Part shown: piece by piece, positions 4,797 to 33,291 of the stretch | Layout of the letters: each line of letters begins with the position of its first letter | Position numbering within the stretch: position 1 is the stretch's first letter | DNA from: a virus | Taxonomy: Duplodnaviria; Heunggongvirae; Uroviricota; Caudoviricetes | Strand: one strand, 5' to 3' | Length of the DNA: 64,000 nt | Virus record (IMG/VR): IMGVR_UViG_3300025000_000063 | Span: 1 to 64,000 of that record | Notes under the pieces: model-generated | Databases searched by the model: none | The model's input: the letters and a program-made list of their open reading frames with translations, nothing else | What the model was told of the DNA's origin: nothing | Translations under genes and position numbers: made by a program

Positions 4797-5150
4797 ATGC
4801 GTCAATGGATGGCCGATCCTTCCTTGATGTGTCGTAAGCATTTACTTGGTGAACATGTTGAACACCATATGTTTATCGGCGCTTTAAAAAGAGAAAAGAA
4901 TGTGAACGGATACCTGGAAAAAGGCCTTTTAGAACCGCGATCTTTATTCAAGCGCCATGAAGAACTTGTCAAAGAGATGAAAAAGAGAGGGTATAAACAC
5001 TCTTCTCCTTTAACTAAAGAAGACGCGACTTGCATATCTTACCTTACCGAAAAACAGAAAAAAGCTAAAATAAACGCCGCTGTATCTTACAAAGATCTTG
5101 TATTAAGATGCCCTGAATGCTTCAAACTCATGATGGAGGAAATACGATGA
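4797..5150 (+). CDS. pyrimidine dimer DNA glycosylase (T4 endonuclease V / DenV-like)
   Basis: The N-terminal pattern SLMCRKHLLGEHVEHHM and the LFKRHEELVKEMKKRGYKH block resemble the DenV family, which has L.DQHL.AE.RE near its N-terminus followed by ...L..E..KRGF. This was compared by eye only. Confidence 0.45.
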   Translation: MRQWMADPSLMCRKHLLGEHVEHHMFIGALKREKNVNGYLEKGLLEPRSLFKRHEELVKEMKKRGYKHSSPLTKEDATCISYLTEKQKKAKINAAVSYKDLVLRCPECFKLMMEEIR

Positions 5151-6929: not shown

Positions 6930-7700
6930 TTACTTCTTCTGAAACAGTAGCCGTTTTTTCAATTCTTCTTTTGCCCGAAACGCTATAGGCTCTTTTTTTC
7001 TTGCACCACGATTGCAAACTATTTCTATCTCGGTCAGATACCCATCAGATGTTGACTGGTGGGTTATTAAGCTGGGGTACTGTTTAATCTTTTTCTTGAA
7101 GTCAGAGGCGCGGAACTCAGGAACACACATAGCCCTCGACAGGGCTGTAACAAACGGCTTTGATGAAGCGTATTTAAGGCCCAGGCTTTGCATATACAGA
7201 ACCACGTCTTTTATTCTGTCGGTGAGCTTTGTGCTGGTGACTTTGTATGTCCCGTTAATAAACATATCACTGTAGTTTCCGCCGGAACCGGAAGGACTCC
7301 CTCTAAAAAACCCGATGGCGGTCGCGAGAGGAATCCTTGTTTCTTCGATAAAATCCTTTATCACAATATAATCTGGTCTTCCGTCTCTGACATACCCGTT
7401 CAGGAAATCGTGGAGAGACCATTTATTAACCGTCTTGGCCAAGTCGGGGATTGATATATCATCATTGCAGACAACGTATTTCGCCGGTATCCCCAAACTC
7501 TGAGCCACTTCAAGCCGGTGATGGCCGTCAATGACTTTAAATTTTTTGTTACCGTTGACTCTGACATGGCATGGATAAGCAGGTATCCAACCATGTTCAC
7601 GCATTGCCTTTGTTAAAAATCTGATCTTTGAAACATCCCGGTTGATCGGATGGAGTTCAAATTTTTCATAATCTGTCGTTGACCTTACTAAATCATTCAT
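6930..7700 (-). CDS. ParB/Srx-fold N-terminal domain protein (ParB-like nuclease domain)
   Basis: KVIDGHHRLEVAQSLGIP is the characteristic ParB N-terminal GxxR box. The start codon overlaps the upstream gene. Confidence 0.6.
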   Translation of the reverse strand: MNDLVRSTTDYEKFELHPINRDVSKIRFLTKAMREHGWIPAYPCHVRVNGNKKFKVIDGHHRLEVAQSLGIPAKYVVCNDDISIPDLAKTVNKWSLHDFLNGYVRDGRPDYIVIKDFIEETRIPLATAIGFFRGSPSGSGGNYSDMFINGTYKVTSTKLTDRIKDVVLYMQSLGLKYASSKPFVTALSRAMCVPEFRASDFKKKIKQYPSLITHQSTSDGYLTEIEIVCNRGARKKEPIAFRAKEELKKRLLFQKK

Positions 7701-8467
7701 GATACAATCCTTTCTATGTGGTTATTTATCCAAGCGACGACCCTCTCAAAAGCCTCTCTTCTTTGGGGGTCGTCGCTTCTAATCCTTTCTAATTGAGAAA
7801 TCGCCATCGTTGAGAACTGCATTGCAGAAGATGCTCGTTTGATATCTTCTTTTTTTGGCTCAACATTAATTTTCTTATAAGCCCCGGCAACACTCTTGTT
7901 AAGATCCTTCTTTAATTCTTTGGCCTTCTCAGGGTCAGATTGTTTCAAGCTGTCAATAGCATCCACAACAGCAATTGCTTTTTCAGCCGTTTTCCCTGAC
8001 CATCCTACTTTTGCGGCTGCGATGTCACGGGACTTACCTTCGCTTAGTGGTGGTAAATTTTCCACAACTAAAGGTTTGCCTGTTTTATGGACTTCCAGGT
8101 TTTTTGCACCGGCGGCAGCTTGTCTATCAGCCGCCCTCTTATCCTCAATCGCCTTCAACACTTTAACCTCCCTGGCTTTCTGTTCCTTGGTCTTCTCCCT
8201 CTGGACGTTGGAAGCTATAAGAATTTCCACCAGCTTATCCGGGTCGGTTTCTTCAATCTCCTGAACCGGGATGACTTCATGTTTGAGAGCTTTGCAGACA
8301 TTCCAACGACGATGCCCGGAAATGATGGTGAAATCTAAGGTAACGATTACCGGAGAGGTAATGCCGTGTTTTTTTATGCTCTGATAAAGATCGTCGTCAA
8401 ACGAATCACCATATATGAGGTTGTTTTGCGGGTGAGGTTTAAGACTATTAATAGGAGCATGATTCAT
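7697..8467 (-). CDS. ParB-like N-terminal domain protein with a Lys-rich C-terminal half
   Basis: LKPHPQNNLIYGD...ISGHRRW is a ParB-N motif. It is arranged in tandem with the second ParB-like gene. Confidence 0.6.
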   Translation of the reverse strand: MNHAPINSLKPHPQNNLIYGDSFDDDLYQSIKKHGITSPVIVTLDFTIISGHRRWNVCKALKHEVIPVQEIEETDPDKLVEILIASNVQREKTKEQKAREVKVLKAIEDKRAADRQAAAGAKNLEVHKTGKPLVVENLPPLSEGKSRDIAAAKVGWSGKTAEKAIAVVDAIDSLKQSDPEKAKELKKDLNKSVAGAYKKINVEPKKEDIKRASSAMQFSTMAISQLERIRSDDPQRREAFERVVAWINNHIERIVS

Positions 8468-8707: not shown

Positions 8708-8953
8708 TTATTCATCATAAAAGGACGCACAGGTTTCGGTCCCTGGCTCCAATTCAGTGTGACCGGCGTCCTTCACAACAAATGCTCCTTTCTCAAATAC
8801 TATCTCTTTAAATTTCTTATCACTGACGGCCAGCACCACCACATTCATATAATACTCTTTGTGATTAATACCCGTAGCTGCGTGAACCGCTTGAGCGGCC
8901 AACTTACCAGGCGACATTTTCAAATTTTTCCGGTAAATTATTTTGAGTCTCAT
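8708..8953 (-). CDS. PTH2-family peptidyl-tRNA hydrolase-like protein (short, 81 aa)
   Basis: NLKMSPGKLAAQAVHAA matches the PTH2 signature (GKGK[IL]AAQ..HAA). The protein ends with DAGHTELEPGTET and appears to lack the last about 25 residues of canonical PTH2. Confidence 0.5.
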   Translation of the reverse strand: MRLKIIYRKNLKMSPGKLAAQAVHAATGINHKEYYMNVVVLAVSDKKFKEIVFEKGAFVVKDAGHTELEPGTETCASFYDE

Positions 8954-9044
8954 TAAAACACCAAAACATAAATAAACTGAGCCACGGTTGATACGGTCAA
9001 AGACAACAAAATAACCGCCACGGCCATCAATAAAAAATAAATAA

Positions 9045-9620
9045 TTATTTCAATAATTTGCATATTTCCCCCGCAAAATCTTTCAGTTCACCAAAAGCAG
9101 GACGGCACCTGAGATCCCACCCCCTATATTTATCCAAGGCTGTTTCTGAACTGTGACGAGCGGCCGGGCCGGACTCCCAACCAACATAAGGGTCAATCCG
9201 GACAAGAATTCCGCCATTGTCTTTAACGAACTCAGCCTCATCTTCAAAACGAACGTCATCAATTACCACCCCGGGGCAGTCGTTGTCTTGGAGTTCATTC
9301 AAGCGCCTTTTCATCTGTTTTGTCCAGTACGCCAGGTCTTGTTTACGCCGGATTTCAGTAGCGTGCCATTGAAGCAAATCACGAACAGTTGTTTGAGGAG
9401 GTGTATACTCCACACCGTCAATAAAATATTTTTCTCTCAACTGGCAAGCCCATTGTTTGTGATGATAACAAACCTCAAGGGGAATCCCATAAATCTGGCT
9501 AACTTCCTGTTTAACCGGGTTTGCAAAAGACGCCCTGACAAACCCTGTTAATCTCACCAATTCTCTGGAGGTCTCTGTTTTACCTGATCCTATTTTTCCC
9601 GAGATACCGATTAATTTCAT
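9045..9620 (-). CDS. P-loop kinase, deoxynucleoside monophosphate kinase family-like
   Basis: MKLIGISGKIGSGKTET is a Walker A motif. FANPVKQEVSQIYGIP resembles the phage dNMP kinase (T4 gp1-like) substrate loop. Confidence 0.55.
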   Translation of the reverse strand: MKLIGISGKIGSGKTETSRELVRLTGFVRASFANPVKQEVSQIYGIPLEVCYHHKQWACQLREKYFIDGVEYTPPQTTVRDLLQWHATEIRRKQDLAYWTKQMKRRLNELQDNDCPGVVIDDVRFEDEAEFVKDNGGILVRIDPYVGWESGPAARHSSETALDKYRGWDLRCRPAFGELKDFAGEICKLLK

Positions 9621-9621
9621 C

Positions 9622-10980
9622 CTACTCTCCTTTTACCGCTGAAATTTTAGAAGGTATTCCTGCTTTTCTAAGAATATCCCCATAATGACTACATACCCCC
9701 ACATTTCCTACTACATTTATCCCCCCCGGTTTACTTTTTATCAGGGAATGCAACCGGGTTAGTTTATCCTTCGTAGACCCCTCTTCTGGAATAAAGAAAT
9801 CGACATATTCAACACCTTCGGCCCCCTCAACAATAGTAACCCCGTCACTCTGAGCGCCAAACTCCCTGTGGAGCTGAACACACCACACTTCAGCTCCGTC
9901 AAACACCCATTCCATTTTTACGCCGCATAAAACCTGCTCCGCTTTTTCATATACCTTTTTAACCGCCGACACAACTTCTTCGGGGATATCCTCTGCCTGT
10001 TTCCCCATCATAAACTCGTCGCCAGCCCCCGCCACCCCTTGGACAAAACCTCGAACAACAGCCCCAGACCACACAGACTTGACGCTTTCTTGACAGATAA
10101 TAGATTTTATAGGCACGTCTTCTTCTTCCTTGATCATCTCAAAAGGGTCTTTCCACCCGAAAAAAGTGGAATAATACCCAGGATGCGGAACTTCCGGACA
10201 AGTCCGTATCCATTTCTCAGTCTCACCCGTTTTTTTACCAAAAACAAAGACAGCAACGTTTCTGGGAATAACCGTCGTCTTAGGCACCCTCAAGCCTATG
10301 GCCTGAGCCACAAGAAGGCCAAAAACTTTATCCCCAAGAAAGCGACTGAAATTATTAGGCCATAAAATTTCAGAATTTACAGGTGAGAAAGAATCAAAAA
10401 CCTCTAACTCCCAAAAAATTATGTGATCATGAGCGTAACCGACTTTTTTCGGATGCAGACTAAACTCTATCCTTTCACCCGGCCTGGGATTCAGCCGAAT
10501 CGGAAACTTATAAACCTCTTCCAAAAGCATAACACCCATGCCAACCGGCAACCGACACGCCCCCGGTTTATCGACACATTTTGGCGTGTCGCCAGGAGAA
10601 AATTCAATGACGCCTCCAAAAACAACCCCTGATACGCCCCCGTCATGAATAGAAATGCTCTCATTCACTATGACGTGGTAACCTTTTTCAAAAGCTTCAT
10701 CCAAACACCTCATAACCTCAGAAACAGAACCGAGATCGAAGATAAGCGACGTCCCTTTAGGGTCGTCAGGGGTAAATCTCCGGATATTGACCGATGAAAC
10801 ATTTTTCAGCAGCCTCTCCACACCCTCTTCAACACAGGGAAAAGAATAATTCGGTTCCGCCCCTCTTATTCTGCAAAAAGTTTGTTCGTATCTGGTTTCC
10901 CCCGGAACAAACGAAATAAACTGAGCCACATTACCTCTTTCTGACAAGCTATTCAAAATCTCATCTTTTTTCATTCTCAC
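9622..10980 (-). CDS. PEP-utilising-enzyme-like ATP-grasp protein (PPDK_N / PEP synthase N-domain-like), 452 aa
   Basis: GDKVFGLLVAQAIGLRVPKTTVIP resembles GGKxANLxExxxxGxPVPxGFxI. The later block EWVFDGAEVWCVQLHRE resembles the EWAxDGxxLxxLQxRP motif of PEP synthase / rifampin phosphotransferase ATP-grasp domains. Confidence 0.4.
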   Translation of the reverse strand: MRMKKDEILNSLSERGNVAQFISFVPGETRYEQTFCRIRGAEPNYSFPCVEEGVERLLKNVSSVNIRRFTPDDPKGTSLIFDLGSVSEVMRCLDEAFEKGYHVIVNESISIHDGGVSGVVFGGVIEFSPGDTPKCVDKPGACRLPVGMGVMLLEEVYKFPIRLNPRPGERIEFSLHPKKVGYAHDHIIFWELEVFDSFSPVNSEILWPNNFSRFLGDKVFGLLVAQAIGLRVPKTTVIPRNVAVFVFGKKTGETEKWIRTCPEVPHPGYYSTFFGWKDPFEMIKEEEDVPIKSIICQESVKSVWSGAVVRGFVQGVAGAGDEFMMGKQAEDIPEEVVSAVKKVYEKAEQVLCGVKMEWVFDGAEVWCVQLHREFGAQSDGVTIVEGAEGVEYVDFFIPEEGSTKDKLTRLHSLIKSKPGGINVVGNVGVCSHYGDILRKAGIPSKISAVKGE

Positions 10981-12617: not shown

Positions 12618-13130
12618 CTACCTCGTTTCAAAAAGGATTTTATAAGGAGAGGTCTTCTTTATTTTATCCTGCATCTCGGAAGTTTCAAACCTCTCCAAGC
12701 GTATGGTTTTTATTTCCGCGCCAGTTACATTTTCAAAGTCTGCTATCAGTTTAAGGATTTCATCTGCCAATACTTCTTTTAAATTTTTATCGTTCATTAT
12801 TTCCCCCCCCCCACAAAAATATTTCTTTATTTCACTTCTCGTTATAGCCGGTCGGGTCCATTCTCTTTGAAACCTTCTCCAGTTTTTGTCTTCATCCCCG
12901 GCAAAAGAATTAAAAGCCGGTCCGTCCATTTCTGCCGGAGCAATCTTTGACCACGCTTTATAAAGATATTCAGCCTTTTCGATGTCATAAGTGAATAAGG
13001 TGCTGATATGAACTCTTGTTATATCCTTTGGGGTGCTCTCGTTCGGAACATCGAAAAAACAGAGATGATCCTCCGGGGAAGCCGAAGTTTTTCTTGGGAA
13101 CACTCTTGCAAGGCCTATCTCTCCCAGCAT
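12618..13130 (-). CDS. hypothetical protein (170 aa) containing a C10 homopolymer tract at 12803-12812
   Basis: The ORF overlaps the primase stop. GGG codons are encoded by the poly-C run. The C-terminal 57 aa may be a separate product, because the run G10 AAATA ATG could act as an RBS. Confidence 0.35.
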   Translation of the reverse strand: MLGEIGLARVFPRKTSASPEDHLCFFDVPNESTPKDITRVHISTLFTYDIEKAEYLYKAWSKIAPAEMDGPAFNSFAGDEDKNWRRFQREWTRPAITRSEIKKYFCGGGEIMNDKNLKEVLADEILKLIADFENVTGAEIKTIRLERFETSEMQDKIKKTSPYKILFETR

Positions 13131-17700: not shown

Positions 17701-17740
17701 CTCGTTAATGGGGAGCGGGCCAACAACAAAGGAGAAAATT

Positions 17741-19732
17741 ATGGATTTTAACATTTTTAAAAAGGCAATGGAATCCCAGTTTGCAAAAATGACCGGGGAG
17801 TTTTTTGTAACTGACGTGGACAAAGATGAGATGTGGAATCTTTATCTCAACAGTTTCCCTCCTGGAACAAACGAAATTTACAGAACAAGACGGGAGTATG
17901 ACTGCCAATGCTGTAAGCAGTTTATCCGGGCCTGCGGTAATGTTATTTCGTTTTCAAGCGGAGAGAGGATGTCTATCTGGGATGTTCAAGTGGATGGCGC
18001 TTTTAAAGTGGTTGCCGAAGCCATGTCAAGATTCGTTAAGGCTGCGCCGGTTAAAAACGTTTTCCGGTATTTCCAAAACAGAGTCGGAACTGACCACAAT
18101 GTTCAGATGGGCGAGGAAGGGAGAATGATAACTTGGAACCATTTTTCACTTGATTTGCCCGCGAGCGTTGTCCGGCCTGCGGACTCAATTGATTCTTTGA
18201 TCGGTGAAATTCGTAGCAGTCAGGAAGTGTTTTTCAGGGGGCTCAATGAAATAACTGTTGAAGCTCTGGAAACGGTTCTGGAATTGATCGCTCAGAATTC
18301 TCTTTACCGGGGGGAAGAACATCAGGCGGCGGTAAAAGCTTTTTCCAAGCTCAAAAAAGAATTCGATAAAAGCGCCGAAAAAATTGATTTTTCATGGATT
18401 CACTCCGGTGCAAAATGCGCCAGAATTCGGAACACTGCAATAGGAACTCTTCTGGTTGATATTTCTAACGACATGCCGCTGGATCAGGCCGTCAGGATGT
18501 TTGAATCGAAAGTCGCCCCGGCCAATTACAAACGTCCTACCGCCCTTGTTACCAAAGGCATGATTGAAAAAGCCCAGAAAACGGTGGAAGAACTGGGCAT
18601 TGAATCTGCTTTAAAACGTCGGTTCGCTGTTGAGCAGGATCTGACCATTAATAACATTCTGTTTGCGGACAGGGCCACCAAAGTTTCCATGAACGTGTTT
18701 GATGACCTGAAAGACGACGTTTCCGTACCAGTGAAGTCGTTGGAGAAAGTCGAAGAGGTCAGTGTCGGGGCGTTTGTTGAGAGCATTCTCCCCCAAGCAT
18801 CCAGTATATCTCTTTTGTTTGAAAACAGGCATTGCGGGAACCTGGTGTCTCTGATTTCCCCGTGCGATCTTGCTGCCAAAAATATTTTCAAATGGAAAAA
18901 CAATTTCTCCTGGTCGTATAAAGGGGAGTTTGCCGACTCGATTAAAGAAAGAGTGAAGGCCGCCGGCGGGAGTGTTACCGGGGATTTACGACTGTCCATT
19001 GGCTGGTTCAATTATGATGATCTGGACAATCATCTGGTAGAACCAGGAACATTCCATATCTATTTTCCATCAAGTAACCGAGTTAACCCCATCTCTTTGG
19101 GGCAACTCGACGTAGACATGAACGCAATGAGTGGTAAATCCAGATCCGCCGTTGAAAACATAACTTACCCGGAAAAGAGGAGGATACAGGAGGGGTACTA
19201 TACTTGGTTCGTTAACCAGTTTACCAGGAGAGAAACTGTAGATGTGGGTTTCACTGCTGAAATGGAGTTTGAGGGAAAGATTTACACATTCAATTACCCT
19301 AAAGCGGTTGTGGGCAATGTTATCGTGGCAAAGTTTAAATACTCTCACACAAACGGGATAGAGATCCTTGAGTCTCTTCCATCAACAGAAACCTCTAAAA
19401 TTGAATGGTGTTTGTCTACCCAGAAATTCCATGACGTTTCGATGATTATGAACTCTCCAAACCATTGGGATGGTAACGAAACAGGCAATAAACATTATTT
19501 TTTCATGCTTAAGGGATGTAAAAACGTTGATTCAGCCCGGGGTTTTTACAACGAGTTTTTGAACGAGGGGTTAACAGAACACCGGAAAGTATTCGAAATT
19601 TTAGGATCTAAAATGAAAGTAGAACCCTCGGATAACCAATTGAGCGGGTTGGGCTTTTCTTCCACTCAAAGAAATCATGTTTTCTGCAAAGTCGCAGGAA
19701 ACTTTACCAGAACAATTAAAATCGTATTTTAA
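17741..19732 (+). CDS. large hypothetical protein (663 aa), first gene of the rightward operon
   Basis: AAAGGAGAAAATT RBS before ATG 17741. I recognise no family. An N-terminal Cys cluster, CQCCKQFIRAC, is present. Confidence 0.55.
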   Translation: MDFNIFKKAMESQFAKMTGEFFVTDVDKDEMWNLYLNSFPPGTNEIYRTRREYDCQCCKQFIRACGNVISFSSGERMSIWDVQVDGAFKVVAEAMSRFVKAAPVKNVFRYFQNRVGTDHNVQMGEEGRMITWNHFSLDLPASVVRPADSIDSLIGEIRSSQEVFFRGLNEITVEALETVLELIAQNSLYRGEEHQAAVKAFSKLKKEFDKSAEKIDFSWIHSGAKCARIRNTAIGTLLVDISNDMPLDQAVRMFESKVAPANYKRPTALVTKGMIEKAQKTVEELGIESALKRRFAVEQDLTINNILFADRATKVSMNVFDDLKDDVSVPVKSLEKVEEVSVGAFVESILPQASSISLLFENRHCGNLVSLISPCDLAAKNIFKWKNNFSWSYKGEFADSIKERVKAAGGSVTGDLRLSIGWFNYDDLDNHLVEPGTFHIYFPSSNRVNPISLGQLDVDMNAMSGKSRSAVENITYPEKRRIQEGYYTWFVNQFTRRETVDVGFTAEMEFEGKIYTFNYPKAVVGNVIVAKFKYSHTNGIEILESLPSTETSKIEWCLSTQKFHDVSMIMNSPNHWDGNETGNKHYFFMLKGCKNVDSARGFYNEFLNEGLTEHRKVFEILGSKMKVEPSDNQLSGLGFSSTQRNHVFCKVAGNFTRTIKIVF

Positions 19733-22369: not shown

Positions 22370-23014
22370 ATGAGTAGCCTATATTGGGATGATTTTGAAA
22401 GACGTATATCTGAAACTGTTTCAGCCGTTAATTCAAAAACCAAACCCCCGGTCAGGCGTGTGGCTGTTTTTATAACGAACCGGTGTAATTTCAGGTGTCA
22501 TTACTGCAATGTAAACCAAAACGAAAAAACATTATCCGAAGAAGCTTTTAATGGCATCATTAATCGCTACGGGAGTGGCGCGATAATCCATATAACTGGT
22601 GGTGAGCCTTCCGTTGTTCCTTGGTTATACTCTTATATGGAAAACAGAAAGGATGTCCGGTTTCATTTAAATACTAACGCCTATTTAGCTCCTCCTAAAA
22701 ACATTAAAAGGTTAAAAGTTTCACTGGACACTCAGTATAAAGATTATTTTAATTTTTTAATTGGGGTTAATTTTAACGCTTTCGATTCGGTGGTGGAAAA
22801 TATAAGGCAAGCGTGTAAAAATACGGTTGTCAGTATAACCTATACTTTGACAAAAGAAAACCATAAGGATTCCGTTGAATTCGCCAAATGGGCGTTAAAA
22901 CAATTCCCCGGTCTATACGCTGTTTTTTTCAGTGTTTACAAAGGAGATAATAAGAGGTTTAAGTTTGATGATTTGTCAGTTAAAGTTTTTTTAATCAGGT
23001 GTTACCTAAGTTGA
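22370..23014 (+). CDS. radical SAM enzyme, N-terminal core (CxxxCxxC = CNFRCHYC; ITGGEP SAM-binding motif)
   Basis: VAVFITNRCNFRCHYC and IIHITGGEPSVVP are present. The frame ends just after the slippery run TTTTTTA at 22987-22993. Confidence 0.65.
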   Translation: MSSLYWDDFERRISETVSAVNSKTKPPVRRVAVFITNRCNFRCHYCNVNQNEKTLSEEAFNGIINRYGSGAIIHITGGEPSVVPWLYSYMENRKDVRFHLNTNAYLAPPKNIKRLKVSLDTQYKDYFNFLIGVNFNAFDSVVENIRQACKNTVVSITYTLTKENHKDSVEFAKWALKQFPGLYAVFFSVYKGDNKRFKFDDLSVKVFLIRCYLS

Positions 23015-23854: not shown

Positions 23855-24049
23855 ATGAAAATTTATTGTTGGCTTGTAGGATTGGCTATTATTATTGGGT
23901 TATTGATCGGCGTGGTTTTGCCAGGCTTGATCTCGTCAAATAGCTCGGAATTGTTTTTGATTGGGGTGGTTTTGATAATCGTATCAATCCCGCTCGTTTA
24001 TTTCATAGGAAAGAAAATATATAAGGAGATTCAAAATGCAAAGATTTAA
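23855..24049 (+). CDS. small two-TM membrane protein (possible NfeD-like partner of the SPFH protein)
   Basis: Hydrophobic, 64 aa. Its stop overlaps the SPFH start. Confidence 0.4.
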   Translation: MKIYCWLVGLAIIIGLLIGVVLPGLISSNSSELFLIGVVLIIVSIPLVYFIGKKIYKEIQNAKI

Positions 24050-24884
24050 ATGGTTTTTTGTTTTGCTGGTGCTTTTGTCAACGGTTGCCTGTTCAAAGGT
24101 TCCTGCTGGTCATGTCGGGGTAAAAGTGTACCTTCTTGGTGGTTCAAAGGGTGTTGAGTCTGAGCAGTTGGGCGTGGGGCGGTATTGGATTGGATGGAAT
24201 GAAGAACTGTATCTGTTCCCTGCGTTTACTCAGAATTACGTATGGACCAAAGATAAAAACGAAGGCAGCCCCAACGACGAGTCAATATCATTTCAAACAG
24301 TTGAAGGCATGAGCGTCAACGCCGATGTCGGGATTTCATACTCAGTTAAACCAGAAAAGGTTGCAGAAGTATTTCAGAAGTACAGAAAGCAGATGGGTGA
24401 AATAACAGATATTTATCTCAGGAACATGGTGAGAGACGCTTTCGTGTCAATAGCGTCCACAATGCCGGTTGAAAACGTGTATGGCGCTGGCAAGGCAGAA
24501 CTTTTAAAATCTGTTGAGGATTATGTTAAAAGCCAGTGCGAGGATATGTTCAATATAGAGCGTATTTATTTAGTCGGTGATCTTAGGTTGCCACAGCAGG
24601 TTACGGCGGCTCTAAATGCTAAAATACAGGCTACTCAGCAGGCCCAGCAGGTGGAAAATGAGATTCGGGCGGCAAAAGCCCAGGCCGAAAAGAAAATAGC
24701 CGAGGCAAAAGGTGAAGCTGATTCATTGCTTCTTGTTGCTGAATCACAGGCCAAAGCCAATAAAATTCTTGCGGCATCTTTGACCCCTGAATTTGTCCAG
24801 TACCAGGCGTTGAAGCAATGGGACGGCAAATTGCCAGGAATAATGATACCGGGCGGTGCCGTTCCGTTCGTGTCGGTGAAATAA
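24036..24884 (+). CDS. SPFH/band-7 (prohibitin/HflK-like) domain lipoprotein
   Basis: Signal peptide with lipobox LSTVAC. VPAGHVGVKV is the SPFH start motif. An Ala/Gln-rich coiled-coil C-terminus follows. Confidence 0.65.
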   Translation: MQRFKWFFVLLVLLSTVACSKVPAGHVGVKVYLLGGSKGVESEQLGVGRYWIGWNEELYLFPAFTQNYVWTKDKNEGSPNDESISFQTVEGMSVNADVGISYSVKPEKVAEVFQKYRKQMGEITDIYLRNMVRDAFVSIASTMPVENVYGAGKAELLKSVEDYVKSQCEDMFNIERIYLVGDLRLPQQVTAALNAKIQATQQAQQVENEIRAAKAQAEKKIAEAKGEADSLLLVAESQAKANKILAASLTPEFVQYQALKQWDGKLPGIMIPGGAVPFVSVK

Positions 24885-32563: not shown

Positions 32564-32752
32564 ATGATAAACAAATATCAAAAACACGAGTTTTGTCGAG
32601 ATGTGGAGTGTGAAGGGTTAAGGTCTGATTTAAATGGCGACAAGACCCAGTGCCCATATTATGCAGAATATTGTTTGAAAACTGCTAAGGAGTTTCATGA
32701 TTGGTTGAAAAACAAAGGTTTTAAAATAACCAAAGAAGGAGAAGGCGAGTAA
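32564..32752 (+). CDS. hypothetical protein (62 aa)
   Basis: ORF. Confidence 0.4.
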   Translation: MINKYQKHEFCRDVECEGLRSDLNGDKTQCPYYAEYCLKTAKEFHDWLKNKGFKITKEGEGE

Positions 32753-33291
32753 TGGACTCCCTAATTTTAACCCAATCAGGAAATTATTTCGATCTTCTTC
32801 GCCCGGAAGAAAGTTGTTTTTCTATTAAGGACATTGCCCACGGGCTATCAAACCTATGTCGTTTTACAGGTCATTGCAGAGAGTTTTATTCGGTGGCGCA
32901 GCACAGTGTACTGGTTAGCAGGATATTACCCATAGAACTTAAATTTGCGGGGTTAATGCACGATGCAGCAGAAGCGTTTTTAGGTGACGTGTCTTCTCCG
33001 TTAAAACACCTTCTCCCGGAATATAAAAAGATTGAAGAGAATGTCGAGAAGGCTATTTTTGATAGATTTGGTGTTTCGTGGGACCAAGTTAAAAGTAAAG
33101 AAGTTAAAAAGGCTGATTTGATTCTTCTTGCTACAGAGAAAAGGGATTTGATGCCCATTACAGGTTATCAATGGGAAATATTAAAAGGCATCGGTCCTTT
33201 GGATTTTATGCGGATACACCCTTTGCCCCCGGAAAAAGCTTTTAATTTATTTATGGAAGAATACAATAAGCTTGACATAAGGAGGGTGTGA
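32752..33291 (+). CDS. HD-domain phosphohydrolase (YfbR-like 5'-deoxynucleotidase family)
   Basis: YSVAQHSVLVS (H) and LMHDAAEAFLGD (HD) motifs are present. Confidence 0.6.
   Translation: MDSLILTQSGNYFDLLRPEESCFSIKDIAHGLSNLCRFTGHCREFYSVAQHSVLVSRILPIELKFAGLMHDAAEAFLGDVSSPLKHLLPEYKKIEENVEKAIFDRFGVSWDQVKSKEVKKADLILLATEKRDLMPITGYQWEILKGIGPLDFMRIHPLPPEKAFNLFMEEYNKLDIRRV

Follow-up and report, generated by a model that had tools for sequence, protein, structure and literature searches.

A protein with two predicted ATP-grasp modules and an invariant C-terminal histidine, co-translated with a dNMP kinase in an uncultured phage: a candidate nucleotide-acting dikinase

What would a relative of PEP synthase do in a tailed phage, directly ahead of a nucleotide kinase? 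The question is raised by two minus-strand genes in a 64,000-nucleotide stretch of caudoviricete DNA (hereafter the window). Both open reading frames, at 9622-10980 (452 aa from a GTG at 10980; stop codon 9622-9624) and at 9045-9620 (191 aa), lie where an earlier note on this DNA had placed them. The true start of the larger gene is probably the ATG at 10974, which is preceded by a GAAGGAGAG ribosome-binding site, is the start used in public gene calls and yields a product of 450 aa; an identical 450-aa protein (P0001) is encoded on 16 metagenome contigs. This gene ends with the codons AAA GGA GAG TAG, such that a Shine-Dalgarno sequence (GGAG, 9627-9630) lies within its last codons, and a single nucleotide (9621) separates its TAG (9622-9624) from the ATG of the smaller gene (9618-9620). 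This junction (9618-9630) confirms the translational coupling that the note had proposed, and it recurs identically in the related phage L103, where the two encoded proteins are respectively 88% and 72% identical to those of the window. In this comparison dN/dS is 0.14 for the larger gene and 0.25 for the smaller.

The 191-aa product is a phage-type deoxynucleoside monophosphate kinase with a Walker A motif (GSGKT) and a DDVRF motif. It matches phrog_139 ('deoxynucleoside monophosphate kinase') with an E-value of 1.1e-32 and the Pfam DNMK profile (PF21448) with 1.5e-7, its 31.7 bits lying above the curated cut-off of 27.1, and it also matches AAA_18; a profile score above the cut-off combined with the Walker A and DxR(F) motifs places it firmly in the dNMP kinase family, to which the note had assigned it. 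The annotation of every one of its 315 phage relatives (31-35% identity) is that of an ordinary dNMP kinase, and amongst the known phage enzymes of this kind (PF21448/phrog_139, T4 gp1-type) it is unusual only in its coupling to the ATP-grasp gene. Across 93 non-redundant loci encoding homologs of the larger protein, a DNMK-type kinase adjoins them solely in this phage lineage, and we accordingly reject the idea of a widely conserved ATP-grasp/dNMP-kinase module.

The larger protein received no annotation from Pfam, PHROGs, NCBIfam or PADLOC, from phmmer searches of PDB sequences, or from searches of the same sequences with a profile of its family. It does possess the two motifs from which the note had recognized an ATP-grasp domain of the PEP synthase/pyruvate-phosphate dikinase (PPDK) type: one of the form GxKxxxLxxxxxxGxxVPxxxVI at residues 216-237 (GDKVFGLLVAQAIGLRVPKTTVI) and one of the form EWxFDGxxxWxVQ at residues 357-369 (EWVFDGAEVWCVQ). 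Within them K218, L222, P233, E357, W358, D361, W366 and Q369 are invariant columns in a 68-member alignment of the family. A profile of the C-terminal half scored above all 1000 shuffles against the nucleotide-binding domain of PEP synthase (PpsA), supporting the proposed enzyme class and identifying a PPDK_N-type ATP-grasp nucleotide-binding domain of the PEP-utilizing dikinase superfamily. Structure prediction, which the note had called for, produced a confident AlphaFold model of the phage protein (pLDDT 91.7), in the form of two ATP-grasp folds, and a further model with a pLDDT of 94.4. The modeling and the alignments show that the protein belongs to an uncharacterized family in which a tail of about 75 residues, with an invariant histidine, follows two ATP-grasp modules arranged in tandem. 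The C-terminal module (residues ~206-375; 9856-10365, minus strand) is of the PpsA/PPDK/rifampin phosphotransferase (RPH) type and displays the motifs GDKxxGLL, WIRT and EWxxDGxxxWxVQ. The remainder ahead of it (residues 1-205; 10366-10980, minus strand) adopts a second ATP-grasp fold and is the most conserved part of the protein. Invariant residues of the N-terminal module (K5, R67, E172 and E193) occupy helix-start, strand and hairpin elements equivalent to those holding K218, R259, E357 and Q369 of the C-terminal module, as judged from the alignment and the AlphaFold model. At the sequence level the N-terminal half shows no detectable similarity to any ATP-grasp domain or to the C-terminal half, and an hhalign comparison of the two halves, though co-linear, was not significant (P 0.11); the call of tandem modules derives from structure. 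No distinct acceptor domain, be it a PEP/pyruvate TIM barrel or a rifampin-binding domain, is present, and the protein would therefore be dikinase-like in its workings while standing outside every described subfamily.

The tail (residues ~376-452; 9625-9855, minus strand) forms a C-terminal mini-domain with the invariant His432 (codon 9685-9687) embedded in an element comprising a strand, a T-S-H loop, a helix, an I-P dipeptide and a further strand. In the family alignment H432, R438, G425 and G428 are invariant, and T430, S431, D435 and P443 are conserved in at least 90% of the members. The motif aligns in register with the histidines of PpsA (His421; equalled in 7 of 2000 shuffles, P about 0.004) and PtsI (His189; 78 of 2000 shuffles), and the pattern G.[TNC][SC]H.{5}R.{3}[ILVMR]P retrieves 56 of 68 members along with PpsA and PtsI themselves. 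In profile searches the tail matched nothing in PDB sequences and nothing significantly in Pfam; the PEP-utilizers profile (PF00391, the swiveling phospho-histidine domain, whose catalytic His stands in G-[GA]-x-[TN]-x-H...R) gave a sub-threshold match in one of 76 members (E 0.067), and among 13 weakly matched Pfam families PEP-utilizers and PPDK_N were each hit by the C-terminal segment of a single member. The element is also much shorter than the canonical swivel domain (~75 as against ~100 aa). We propose that the mini-domain is a phospho- or pyrophospho-histidine carrier, an assignment that hangs on one short sequence motif.

On this basis we tentatively favor, at somewhat less than an even chance, the reading that the protein is a histidine-mediated dikinase or pyrophosphokinase with a nucleotide-type acceptor, which modifies the deoxynucleotide pool together with the coupled kinase. 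Its mode of action would resemble that of the PEP-utilizing dikinases (PEP synthase, PPDK and RPH). The C-terminal PpsA-type module, proposed as the donor site, would bind ATP; His432 on the mobile tail would attack the beta-phosphate and become phosphorylated or pyrophosphorylated, with release of AMP; and the tail would then swing to the N-terminal module, proposed as the acceptor site, to pass on the phosphoryl or pyrophosphoryl group. As this second site is an ATP-grasp fold that retains Lys, Arg, Glu and Glu at nucleotide-phosphate and Mg positions, the acceptor is most likely a nucleotide, which is also what the genomic neighbors of the family point to. Candidate acceptors include a dNMP, a dNDP or a nucleoside derivative, and the enzyme would then be a nucleotide-to-nucleotide (pyro)phosphotransferase. 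The gene appears to close an early/replication operon, and the ordinary dNMP kinase translated with it may make or consume the same nucleotide, so that the pair would reshape or modify the deoxynucleotide pool during infection. Alternatively, the N-terminal half could be a degenerate, non-catalytic domain that binds a non-nucleotide ligand.

The mechanistic template is RPH, in which an ATP-grasp domain and an acceptor domain are served by a swivel histidine at the C-terminus (PMC4844700). RPH (PDB 5hv1/5hv6; PMC4844700) has one ATP-grasp domain, a 430-residue rifampin-binding domain and a swivel domain of ~100 residues, whereas the phage protein, at half the size, has a second ATP-grasp module as its proposed acceptor domain and a histidine element of ~75 residues; none of the sequence searches connects the two. 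Unlike PpsA and PPDK (1vbg), it has no PEP/pyruvate TIM barrel, has two ATP-grasp modules rather than one, bears its histidine element at the C-terminus rather than centrally, and belongs to a family that falls below the Pfam thresholds for PPDK_N and PEP-utilizers. The two-component kinase HpeHI (HpeI, PDB 9goj; PMC12167813) acts on hydroxyphenylethanones with its functions split over two proteins and, unlike the phage family, is linked neither with nucleotide genes nor with mobile or defense contexts. The likeness to the carbamoyl-phosphate synthetase large subunit (1a9x) is confined to the fold, as that far larger protein has tunnel-coupled sites and no phospho-histidine carrier. If the dikinase reading is correct, the family would represent a previously unrecognized route of phosphate transfer between nucleotides, by a dikinase with a second ATP-grasp module for its acceptor site. 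It would then join a growing number of immune and counter-immune enzymes with the nucleotide pool as their target, and would give a name to about 660 protein clusters currently labeled 'hypothetical'. With a small (450 aa) and confidently modeled protein and an obvious active-site mutant (H432A), it is directly testable in vitro.

The phyletic distribution of the family bears on its biological role. This widely transferred family comprises 659 clusters among 1.84 billion, with at least 279 genomic hits, and none of the Pfam, NCBIfam, PHROG or PADLOC models covers it; its members, from more than 10 phyla, share about 45% identity. Most are bacterial and lie mainly within defense islands, with neighbors that match DruA, KwaAB, AbiE, MADS, dGTPase, CapP, a type I restriction-modification system and Bub genes; PADLOC-DB 2.0 models matched these neighbors only, with zero hits to the phage ATP-grasp protein, to its kinase, or to either the short or the long form from bacteria. 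Operons in bacteria include the arrangements AAA+/NDT-like/ATP-grasp, ATP-grasp with HD (Sinorhizobium) and NDT-like with ATP-grasp (Larkinella). Other nucleotide kinases, and hydrolases acting on nucleotides, are found repeatedly near the bacterial genes, including CMP-kinase-like genes, kinase::adenylosuccinate-synthetase fusions, YfbR-like HD, dGTPase-like and calcineurin-like phosphoesterase genes. A further partner is a DUF4406/NDT-like domain, which is fused to the ATP-grasp protein in 10 of the 93 loci, encoded by an adjacent gene in 24 and missing from 59, the linkages spanning more than 10 phyla; the NDT-like label rests on consistent DUF4406 matches that are individually sub-threshold (E 0.002-0.13), and a profile of the domain found nothing in PDB sequences. 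Such defense-island contexts with nucleotide-processing partners suggest that the family has been exchanged between bacterial defense systems and phages; enzymes of this family are carried by the defense islands of more than 10 phyla and by uncultured phages. Our keyword-based search of the open-access literature found no description of this family, of DUF7002, or of an ATP-grasp/phospho-histidine enzyme in phage defense.

This raises the possibility that the phage captured its copy from bacterial immunity and employs it not in the biosynthesis of phage DNA but in superinfection exclusion, or in a counter-defense by which the nucleotide pool would be restored or protected or a nucleotide immune signal inactivated. 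Almost all members come from bacteria, where defense genes surround them, and in Sinorhizobium one copy immediately follows a gene for a CapP-like regulator. The closest relatives of the phage protein outside its own lineage are the long NDT-fused forms (49-51% identity), and viral loci are few: there are 10 in IMG/VR, several of them resembling defense operons, and blastn and tblastn searches of 50,697 GenBank phage genomes, and thus of cultured phages, recovered none. Against this, PADLOC has no model for the family, and the phage members are located in replication modules, either coupled to the metabolic kinase or adjoining a DnaG-type primase, which fits a function in supplying nucleotides. 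We regard a captured immune gene as rather unlikely; this reading concerns the biological role and is compatible with the dikinase mechanism. A bolder version, which we offer as speculation with little weight, combines the two: the family would be a new class of nucleotide (pyro)phosphotransferases, with a histidine shuttling phosphate or pyrophosphate between two ATP-grasp sites, at the core of an undescribed bacterial anti-phage system from which the phage took only the synthetase, linking it to a dNMP kinase of its own. Its product might be a phosphorylated nucleotide of an uncommon kind, for example an alarmone-like signal, a toxic analog or the outcome of a one-step dNMP-to-dNTP conversion, and swappable partners (the NDT-like glycosidase, HD nucleotidase, calcineurin-like or dGTPase-like hydrolases, or an AAA+ ATPase) would remove or regulate it, much as small alarmone hydrolases neutralize toxic alarmone synthetases.

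The phage has one other nucleotide-pool enzyme, an HD-domain dNMP phosphatase of 179 aa (32752-33291, plus strand; YfbR-like, 2.1e-5), whose best PDB match is Atu1052 (2gz4, 2e-16). It is 45-50% identical (E-values down to 5e-54; HMM of the cl2 group, 8e-62) to the HD proteins encoded beside the family at some 24 loci of alphaproteobacteria, and equally similar (~50%) to those of 344 ordinary phages in which the ATP-grasp family is missing. We therefore reject a specifically co-inherited ATP-grasp/HD pair, and the 24 or so bacterial loci are probably one lineage-specific island.

Taken as a whole, the points that we count for a dikinase are the RPH template, the confidence of the models, the profile score of the C-terminal half against PpsA, the register of the histidine, the weak PEP-utilizers and PPDK_N matches, the equivalent invariant residues of the two modules, the dN/dS of 0.14, the retained coupling to the dNMP kinase, the NDT-like and other nucleotide-related partners and the defense-island setting. 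Those counted against it are the short tail, the N-terminal half without sequence similarity to ATP-grasp domains, a nucleotide acceptor deduced from gene neighbors, the sub-threshold NDT-like call, the 59 loci that have no such partner, the non-specific HD link, the lineage-limited pairing with the kinase and the ranking of structural matches by Foldseek, which places ATP-grasp ligases (D-Ala-D-Ala ligase) at the top. This last result leaves room for a different chemistry, namely that of an ATP-grasp ligase which converts ATP to ADP and Pi via an acyl-phosphate and joins a carboxylate to an amine, as a peptide or amino-acid ligase or a nucleotide amidoligase, with the C-terminal histidine being structural or a general base. 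Such carboxylate-amine ligases (Ddl/RimK type) combine an ATP-grasp core with a pre-ATP-grasp domain. We consider a ligase improbable.

The earlier note had itself suggested that the two genes, together with a radical SAM gene at 22370, could form a split pathway of DNA or nucleotide modification, and had pointed to YuA/M6-like phages; in its specific form this would be a pathway that hypermodifies thymidine (5-hmdU-derived) in the phage DNA, as in M6, ViI or YuA-like phages. Known clusters of this type (M6/ViI/SP10; 5-HMUDK with AADT/aGPT-Pplase, with or without radical SAM and PLP enzymes; PMC8989533) share with the phage a type of replication module: the note's DUF2800/DUF2815/PolA module is borne out by a DUF2800 protein and an Enc34-type ssDNA-binding protein ('DUF2815'), while PolA is reduced to a weak match below the Pfam cut-off. 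The phage also has a P-loop kinase, a radical SAM enzyme, an HD hydrolase with weak similarity to M6 gp59 and two ParB-like genes; the published clusters contain P-loop kinases and radical SAM enzymes as well as unassigned 'amidoligase' genes and, in some cases, ParB (PMC8989533, PMC13229309), and we count this overlap in favor. However, comparison with the M6 proteins found none of the defining enzymes in the 64-kb window. The kinase lies outside the 5-hmdU DNA kinase subfamily (E 5.4 against M6 gp54, the 5-HMUDK, with no window ORF below E 0.07). For M6 gp51 (AADT/aGPT-Pplase) blastp and phmmer, as single-sequence tests over window ORFs of at least 50 aa, gave nothing below E 0.4. Likewise, no ORF of the window matches gp52 (a PLP enzyme), gp53 (a radical SAM isomerase) or the dUMP hydroxymethylase gp58 (ThyA family), for which the note had proposed a search; a TET/JBP dioxygenase would be another source of 5-hmdU, several ORFs of the window are unannotated, and the genome may extend further, as contigs of up to 137 kb exist. 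The radical SAM enzyme is generic, encoded 11 kb away on the opposite strand, and never co-occurs with the ATP-grasp family at the other loci searched. Moreover, the 50,697 phage records without the family include every known hypermodifying phage, and its members are chiefly in bacterial defense islands. The lack of matches to a 5-HMUDK, AADT or dUMP hydroxymethylase in the window and the lack of co-occurrence with radical SAM thus leave the pathway unsupported and, in our estimation, very improbable. What survives of the note's proposal, as we infer, is its looser form: a nucleotide-acting enzyme working alongside a nucleotide kinase.

A Z-base (2-aminoadenine) cluster was likewise rejected, as the HD protein is not DatZ-like and a PurA/PurZ homolog is missing from the window; the kinase::PurA fusions of bacteria fall within a short adenylosuccinate synthetase clade that includes PurZ and are uninformative for this phage. 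A PTH2-like gene (8708-8953) lies directly downstream and a Thg1-like gene lies 5 kb upstream. Although these neighbors and the ATP-grasp-related modules of RNA ligases (PMC7824862) could be read as favoring an RNA or tRNA repair module, in which the P-loop protein would serve as a polynucleotide kinase and the ATP-grasp protein would modify or ligate RNA ends, we give this almost no credence. Terminator consensus matches in the region do not exceed shuffle expectation; the single match, a terminator-like hairpin (9010-9028, minus strand) 17 nt after the kinase stop, is a weak candidate for the end of the transcription unit.

The 452 aa protein encoded from a GTG on the minus strand at 9622-10980 is followed on the same strand by an ORF of 191 aa (9045-9620). 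The ATG at 10974, which is preceded by GAAGGAGAG and is the start used in public gene calls (giving 450 aa), is more likely to be the true start of the large gene than the GTG at 10980. The 3' end of this gene reads ...AAA GGA GAG TAG, and the kinase ATG lies one base past its stop, so that a GGAG Shine-Dalgarno falls inside its final codons; the ORF pair and the coupling described in the earlier note were thus both recovered. The two genes form the end of a minus-strand early/replication operon, which also includes a PrimPol-helicase, a Thg1-like gene and several small ORFs. A terminator-like hairpin after the kinase (9010-9028) is a single consensus match, no more than expected by chance, and downstream of the kinase lie a short PTH2-like gene and two ParB-like genes. 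The divergent plus-strand operon codes for a SNF2 protein, a radical SAM protein, DUF2800, an Enc34-type SSB, an exonuclease, a weak PolA match and an HD hydrolase, and the remainder of the window consists of structural genes. Its source is a real phage, as yet uncultured, and groundwater metagenomes contain identical copies.

The large protein matched nothing in Pfam, PHROGs, NCBIfam or PADLOC, nor any PDB sequence when used either singly or as a family profile. A word-indexed search recovered more than 629 homologs, annotated throughout as 'hypothetical' and none with a Pfam domain, with identities of 41-51% in Alphaproteobacteria, Acidobacteriota, Cyanobacteria, Bacteroidota, Bacillota, Saccharibacteria and others. 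When 1.84 billion cluster representatives were searched exhaustively with HMMER, only 659 were returned at E <= 1e-3 (340 at E <= 1e-30), nearly all aligning end to end, and relatives are encoded in 279 stretches among the genomes of 185,579 species. Judged from these comparisons the family is small, sharply bounded and strongly conserved. Keyword searches of open-access text found neither the family nor its architecture described.

A confident AlphaFold2 model built from 68 homologs (pLDDT 91.7, pTM 0.88) shows a predicted tandem ATP-grasp fold, and Foldseek searches with this model retrieved ATP-grasp ligases (E about 1e-4 over about 180-215 columns). At the sequence level only the C-terminal module is recognizable: when its profile is aligned to E. 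coli PEP synthase (PpsA), the EW..DG...W.VQ block falls on 294-347 with a score reached in 0/1000 shuffles, which bears out the PEP-utilising/ATP-grasp class assigned in the earlier note. The N-half profile gave no signal (160/1000 shuffles reach its score), and an hhalign comparison of the two halves was not significant (P 0.11), yet co-linear. Both halves display an invariant Lys opening the first helix (K5 and K218, each with Leu at +4), an invariant Arg within a strand (R67 in VNVRS and R259 in WIRT) and an acidic/amide pair in a beta-hairpin (E172 and E193; E357 and Q369). By analogy with dikinase ATP-grasps, these residues would bind phosphate and Mg; rifampin phosphotransferase (RPH) employs Lys22, Arg117 and Thr136 (PMC4844700).

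The C-terminal tail (residues about 376-452) ends in the pattern strand/G-x-T-S-H/helix/I-P/strand, in which H432, R438, G425 and G428 are invariant and T430, S431, D435 and P443 nearly so. In the tail, T(-2), H(0), R(+6), [IL](+10) and P(+11) are spaced as they are at the phospho-histidine sites of E. coli PpsA (GGRTCHAAIIARELGIP) and PtsI (GGRTSHTSIMARSLELP); a regular expression for the motif matches 56 of 68 members together with both E. coli proteins. The family tail profile aligns right at the phospho-His sites, with scores equalled in 7/2000 shuffles for PpsA and 78/2000 for PtsI. Tail profile searches gave nothing significant, and in length the tail falls short of a canonical swivel domain; 76 tails searched individually against Pfam gave one weak match apiece to PEP-utilizers (E 0.067) and PPDK_N (E 0.095). 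The sequence likeness to the PpsA/PtsI site is suggestive rather than proof, and a His-carrier role for the tail is moderately supported.

In RPH an ATP-grasp is combined with an acceptor domain and, at the C-terminus, a swivel His (PMC4844700), and the parts of the large protein and their order parallel this layout. By this analogy the protein most likely works in the manner of a PEP-utiliser dikinase, whose His tail would carry a group to an acceptor held in the N-terminal ATP-grasp-like site. As that site is a nucleotide-binding fold keeping the hallmark residues, we infer that the acceptor is most plausibly a nucleotide, and likewise the direction of transfer. The protein would differ in one defining feature from all described PEP-utiliser dikinase subfamilies, as its acceptor domain would be a second ATP-grasp.

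The partner is an ordinary phage deoxynucleoside monophosphate kinase, in line with its earlier placement among P-loop kinases of this family: it matches phrog_139 in PHROGs (1.1e-32) and exceeds the cut-off for PF21448 (DNMK) in Pfam, and relatives 31-35% identical occur in 315 GenBank phage records, all 315 annotated as dNMP kinase. A DNMK-type kinase adjoins the family only in the window phage and its 88%-identical relative (among 93 non-redundant loci). This relative retains the cassette and junction with different genes upstream, and dN/dS between the two is 0.14 for the large gene and 0.25 for the kinase. In this same relative (L103:1555-3534 and L104) three genes, one of the PAPS-reductase family, stand between syntenic flanks where the window has ORF 12618-13130, a position which is a small swappable cassette next to the PrimPol-helicase.

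The ATP-grasp enzyme, the kinase and the radical SAM protein (214 aa, 22370-23014, plus strand, between unannotated ORFs of 151 aa and 159 aa) had been proposed to form a split DNA or nucleotide modification pathway. Thymidine hypermodification requires a 5-hmdU source (dUMP hydroxymethylase or TET/JBP, at times with ParB), the kinase 5-HMUDK and aGPT-Pplase/AADT (PMC8989533, PMC13229309); in a recent finding, ParB homologs act as activators of phage thymine dioxygenases (PMC13229309). None of the phage M6 proteins gp51 (AADT/aGPT-Pplase), gp52 (PLP enzyme), gp53 (radical SAM isomerase), gp54 (5-HMUDK) and gp58 (dUMP hydroxymethylase) matched any ORF of the 64-kb window, which may be less than the whole phage genome, and the kinase showed no similarity to gp54 (E 5.4). 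The sole M6 protein with a match was the HD protein gp59, weakly similar to the window HD protein (2e-5). The radical SAM protein is generic, its matches to MoaA (3.5e-12), NrdG (2e-9), viperin (1.5e-7) and QueE each falling far short of the cut-off, and the family has no member in GenBank phage genomes, those of known hypermodifying phages included. Together these observations make a hypermodification pathway unlikely.

Returning to the putative nucleotide-directed dikinase, we called ORFs and clustered neighbors in the 93 loci (10 viral, 80 genomic and others). The most frequent partner, encoded directly upstream on the same strand in 24 loci, measures about 207 aa, and its domain also makes up the N-terminal extension of long forms of about 685 aa (10 loci). 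This domain gives consistent sub-threshold matches to DUF4406, a nucleoside 2-deoxyribosyltransferase (NDT)-like domain (E 0.002-0.13); its profile retrieved nothing among PDB sequences. At least ten phyla show the association. Other neighbors are IetA-like AAA+ ATPases and a transmembrane protein (11 loci each), CMP-kinase-like proteins matching the PADLOC 'pVip-kinase' model (3 loci), calcineurin-like phosphoesterases and dGTPase-like HD proteins, and in Alphaproteobacteria a YfbR-like HD protein (about 24 loci by blast) and a convergent pair of DUF7002 and kinase::adenylosuccinate-synthetase genes (about 20 loci). PADLOC detected dGTPase (5e-120), DruA (5e-176), KwaA/KwaB, AbiEi/Eii, MADS, PDC-S01/S72, SoFic and CapP among 148 immediate neighbors, and single loci adjoin a type I RM system, Bub ubiquitin-like genes or toxin-antitoxin pairs; the family itself is covered by no PADLOC model. 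This mixture of nucleotide-processing and defence genes identifies the family as a nucleotide-centred component of defence islands.

In the convergent alphaproteobacterial pair, which is conserved (e.g. L070:8047-9651, minus strand, and the DUF7002 gene L042:7365-8057), a P-loop kinase domain is fused to a short-type adenylosuccinate synthetase. Among solved structures archaeal AdSS come closest to this synthetase, followed by phage PurZ of the 2-aminoadenine pathway; the literature searched made no mention of DUF7002. Three operons (L008:3596-9052, L058 and L075) join a CMP-kinase-like gene, matching the PADLOC pVip-kinase and VakA models, to an IetA-like AAA+ ATPase of about 800 aa and to the NDT-like domain and tandem ATP-grasp, which are fused in L008 and separate genes in L058 and L075. 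These look like a multi-gene defence system so far undescribed, and the L008 operon adjoins DruA. In Sinorhizobium the gene immediately before the ATP-grasp and HD pair encodes a CapP-like M78 peptidase (L005:5605-6546, plus strand; PADLOC capP 1.7e-60) and itself has small ORFs upstream, an arrangement similar to that of CapH/CapP regulators in defence operons such as CBASS.

The window HD 'dNMP phosphatase' (32752-33291, plus strand) is 45-50% identical to HD proteins adjoining the family in Alphaproteobacteria. A reading of this as co-inheritance was set aside, since its subfamily occurs at about 50% identity in 344 ordinary phage records lacking the family (ST64B and temperate phages of E. 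coli and Klebsiella), making the link non-specific. The phage thus has a gene for a dNMP phosphatase as well as one for a dNMP kinase. The radical SAM, PTH2-like, ParB-like, Thg1-like and upstream 132-aa genes never stand beside the family in other loci. The two ParB-like genes (7697-8467 and 6930-7700, minus strand) overlap and encode 256 aa each. The Thg1-like gene (tRNA-His guanylyltransferase family, PF04446; 16222-16926, minus strand) and the truncated PTH2-like peptidyl-tRNA hydrolase of 81 aa (8708-8953, minus strand) share one early operon, which hints at tRNA/RNA repair or manipulation. The plus strand further encodes an SPFH/Band 7 protein within the replication module (24036-24884; phrog_200 'lipoprotein'), a 674-aa ORF assigned DUF8224 in a public gene call (17708-19732) and a T4 endonuclease V-like pyrimidine-dimer glycosylase (4797-5150).
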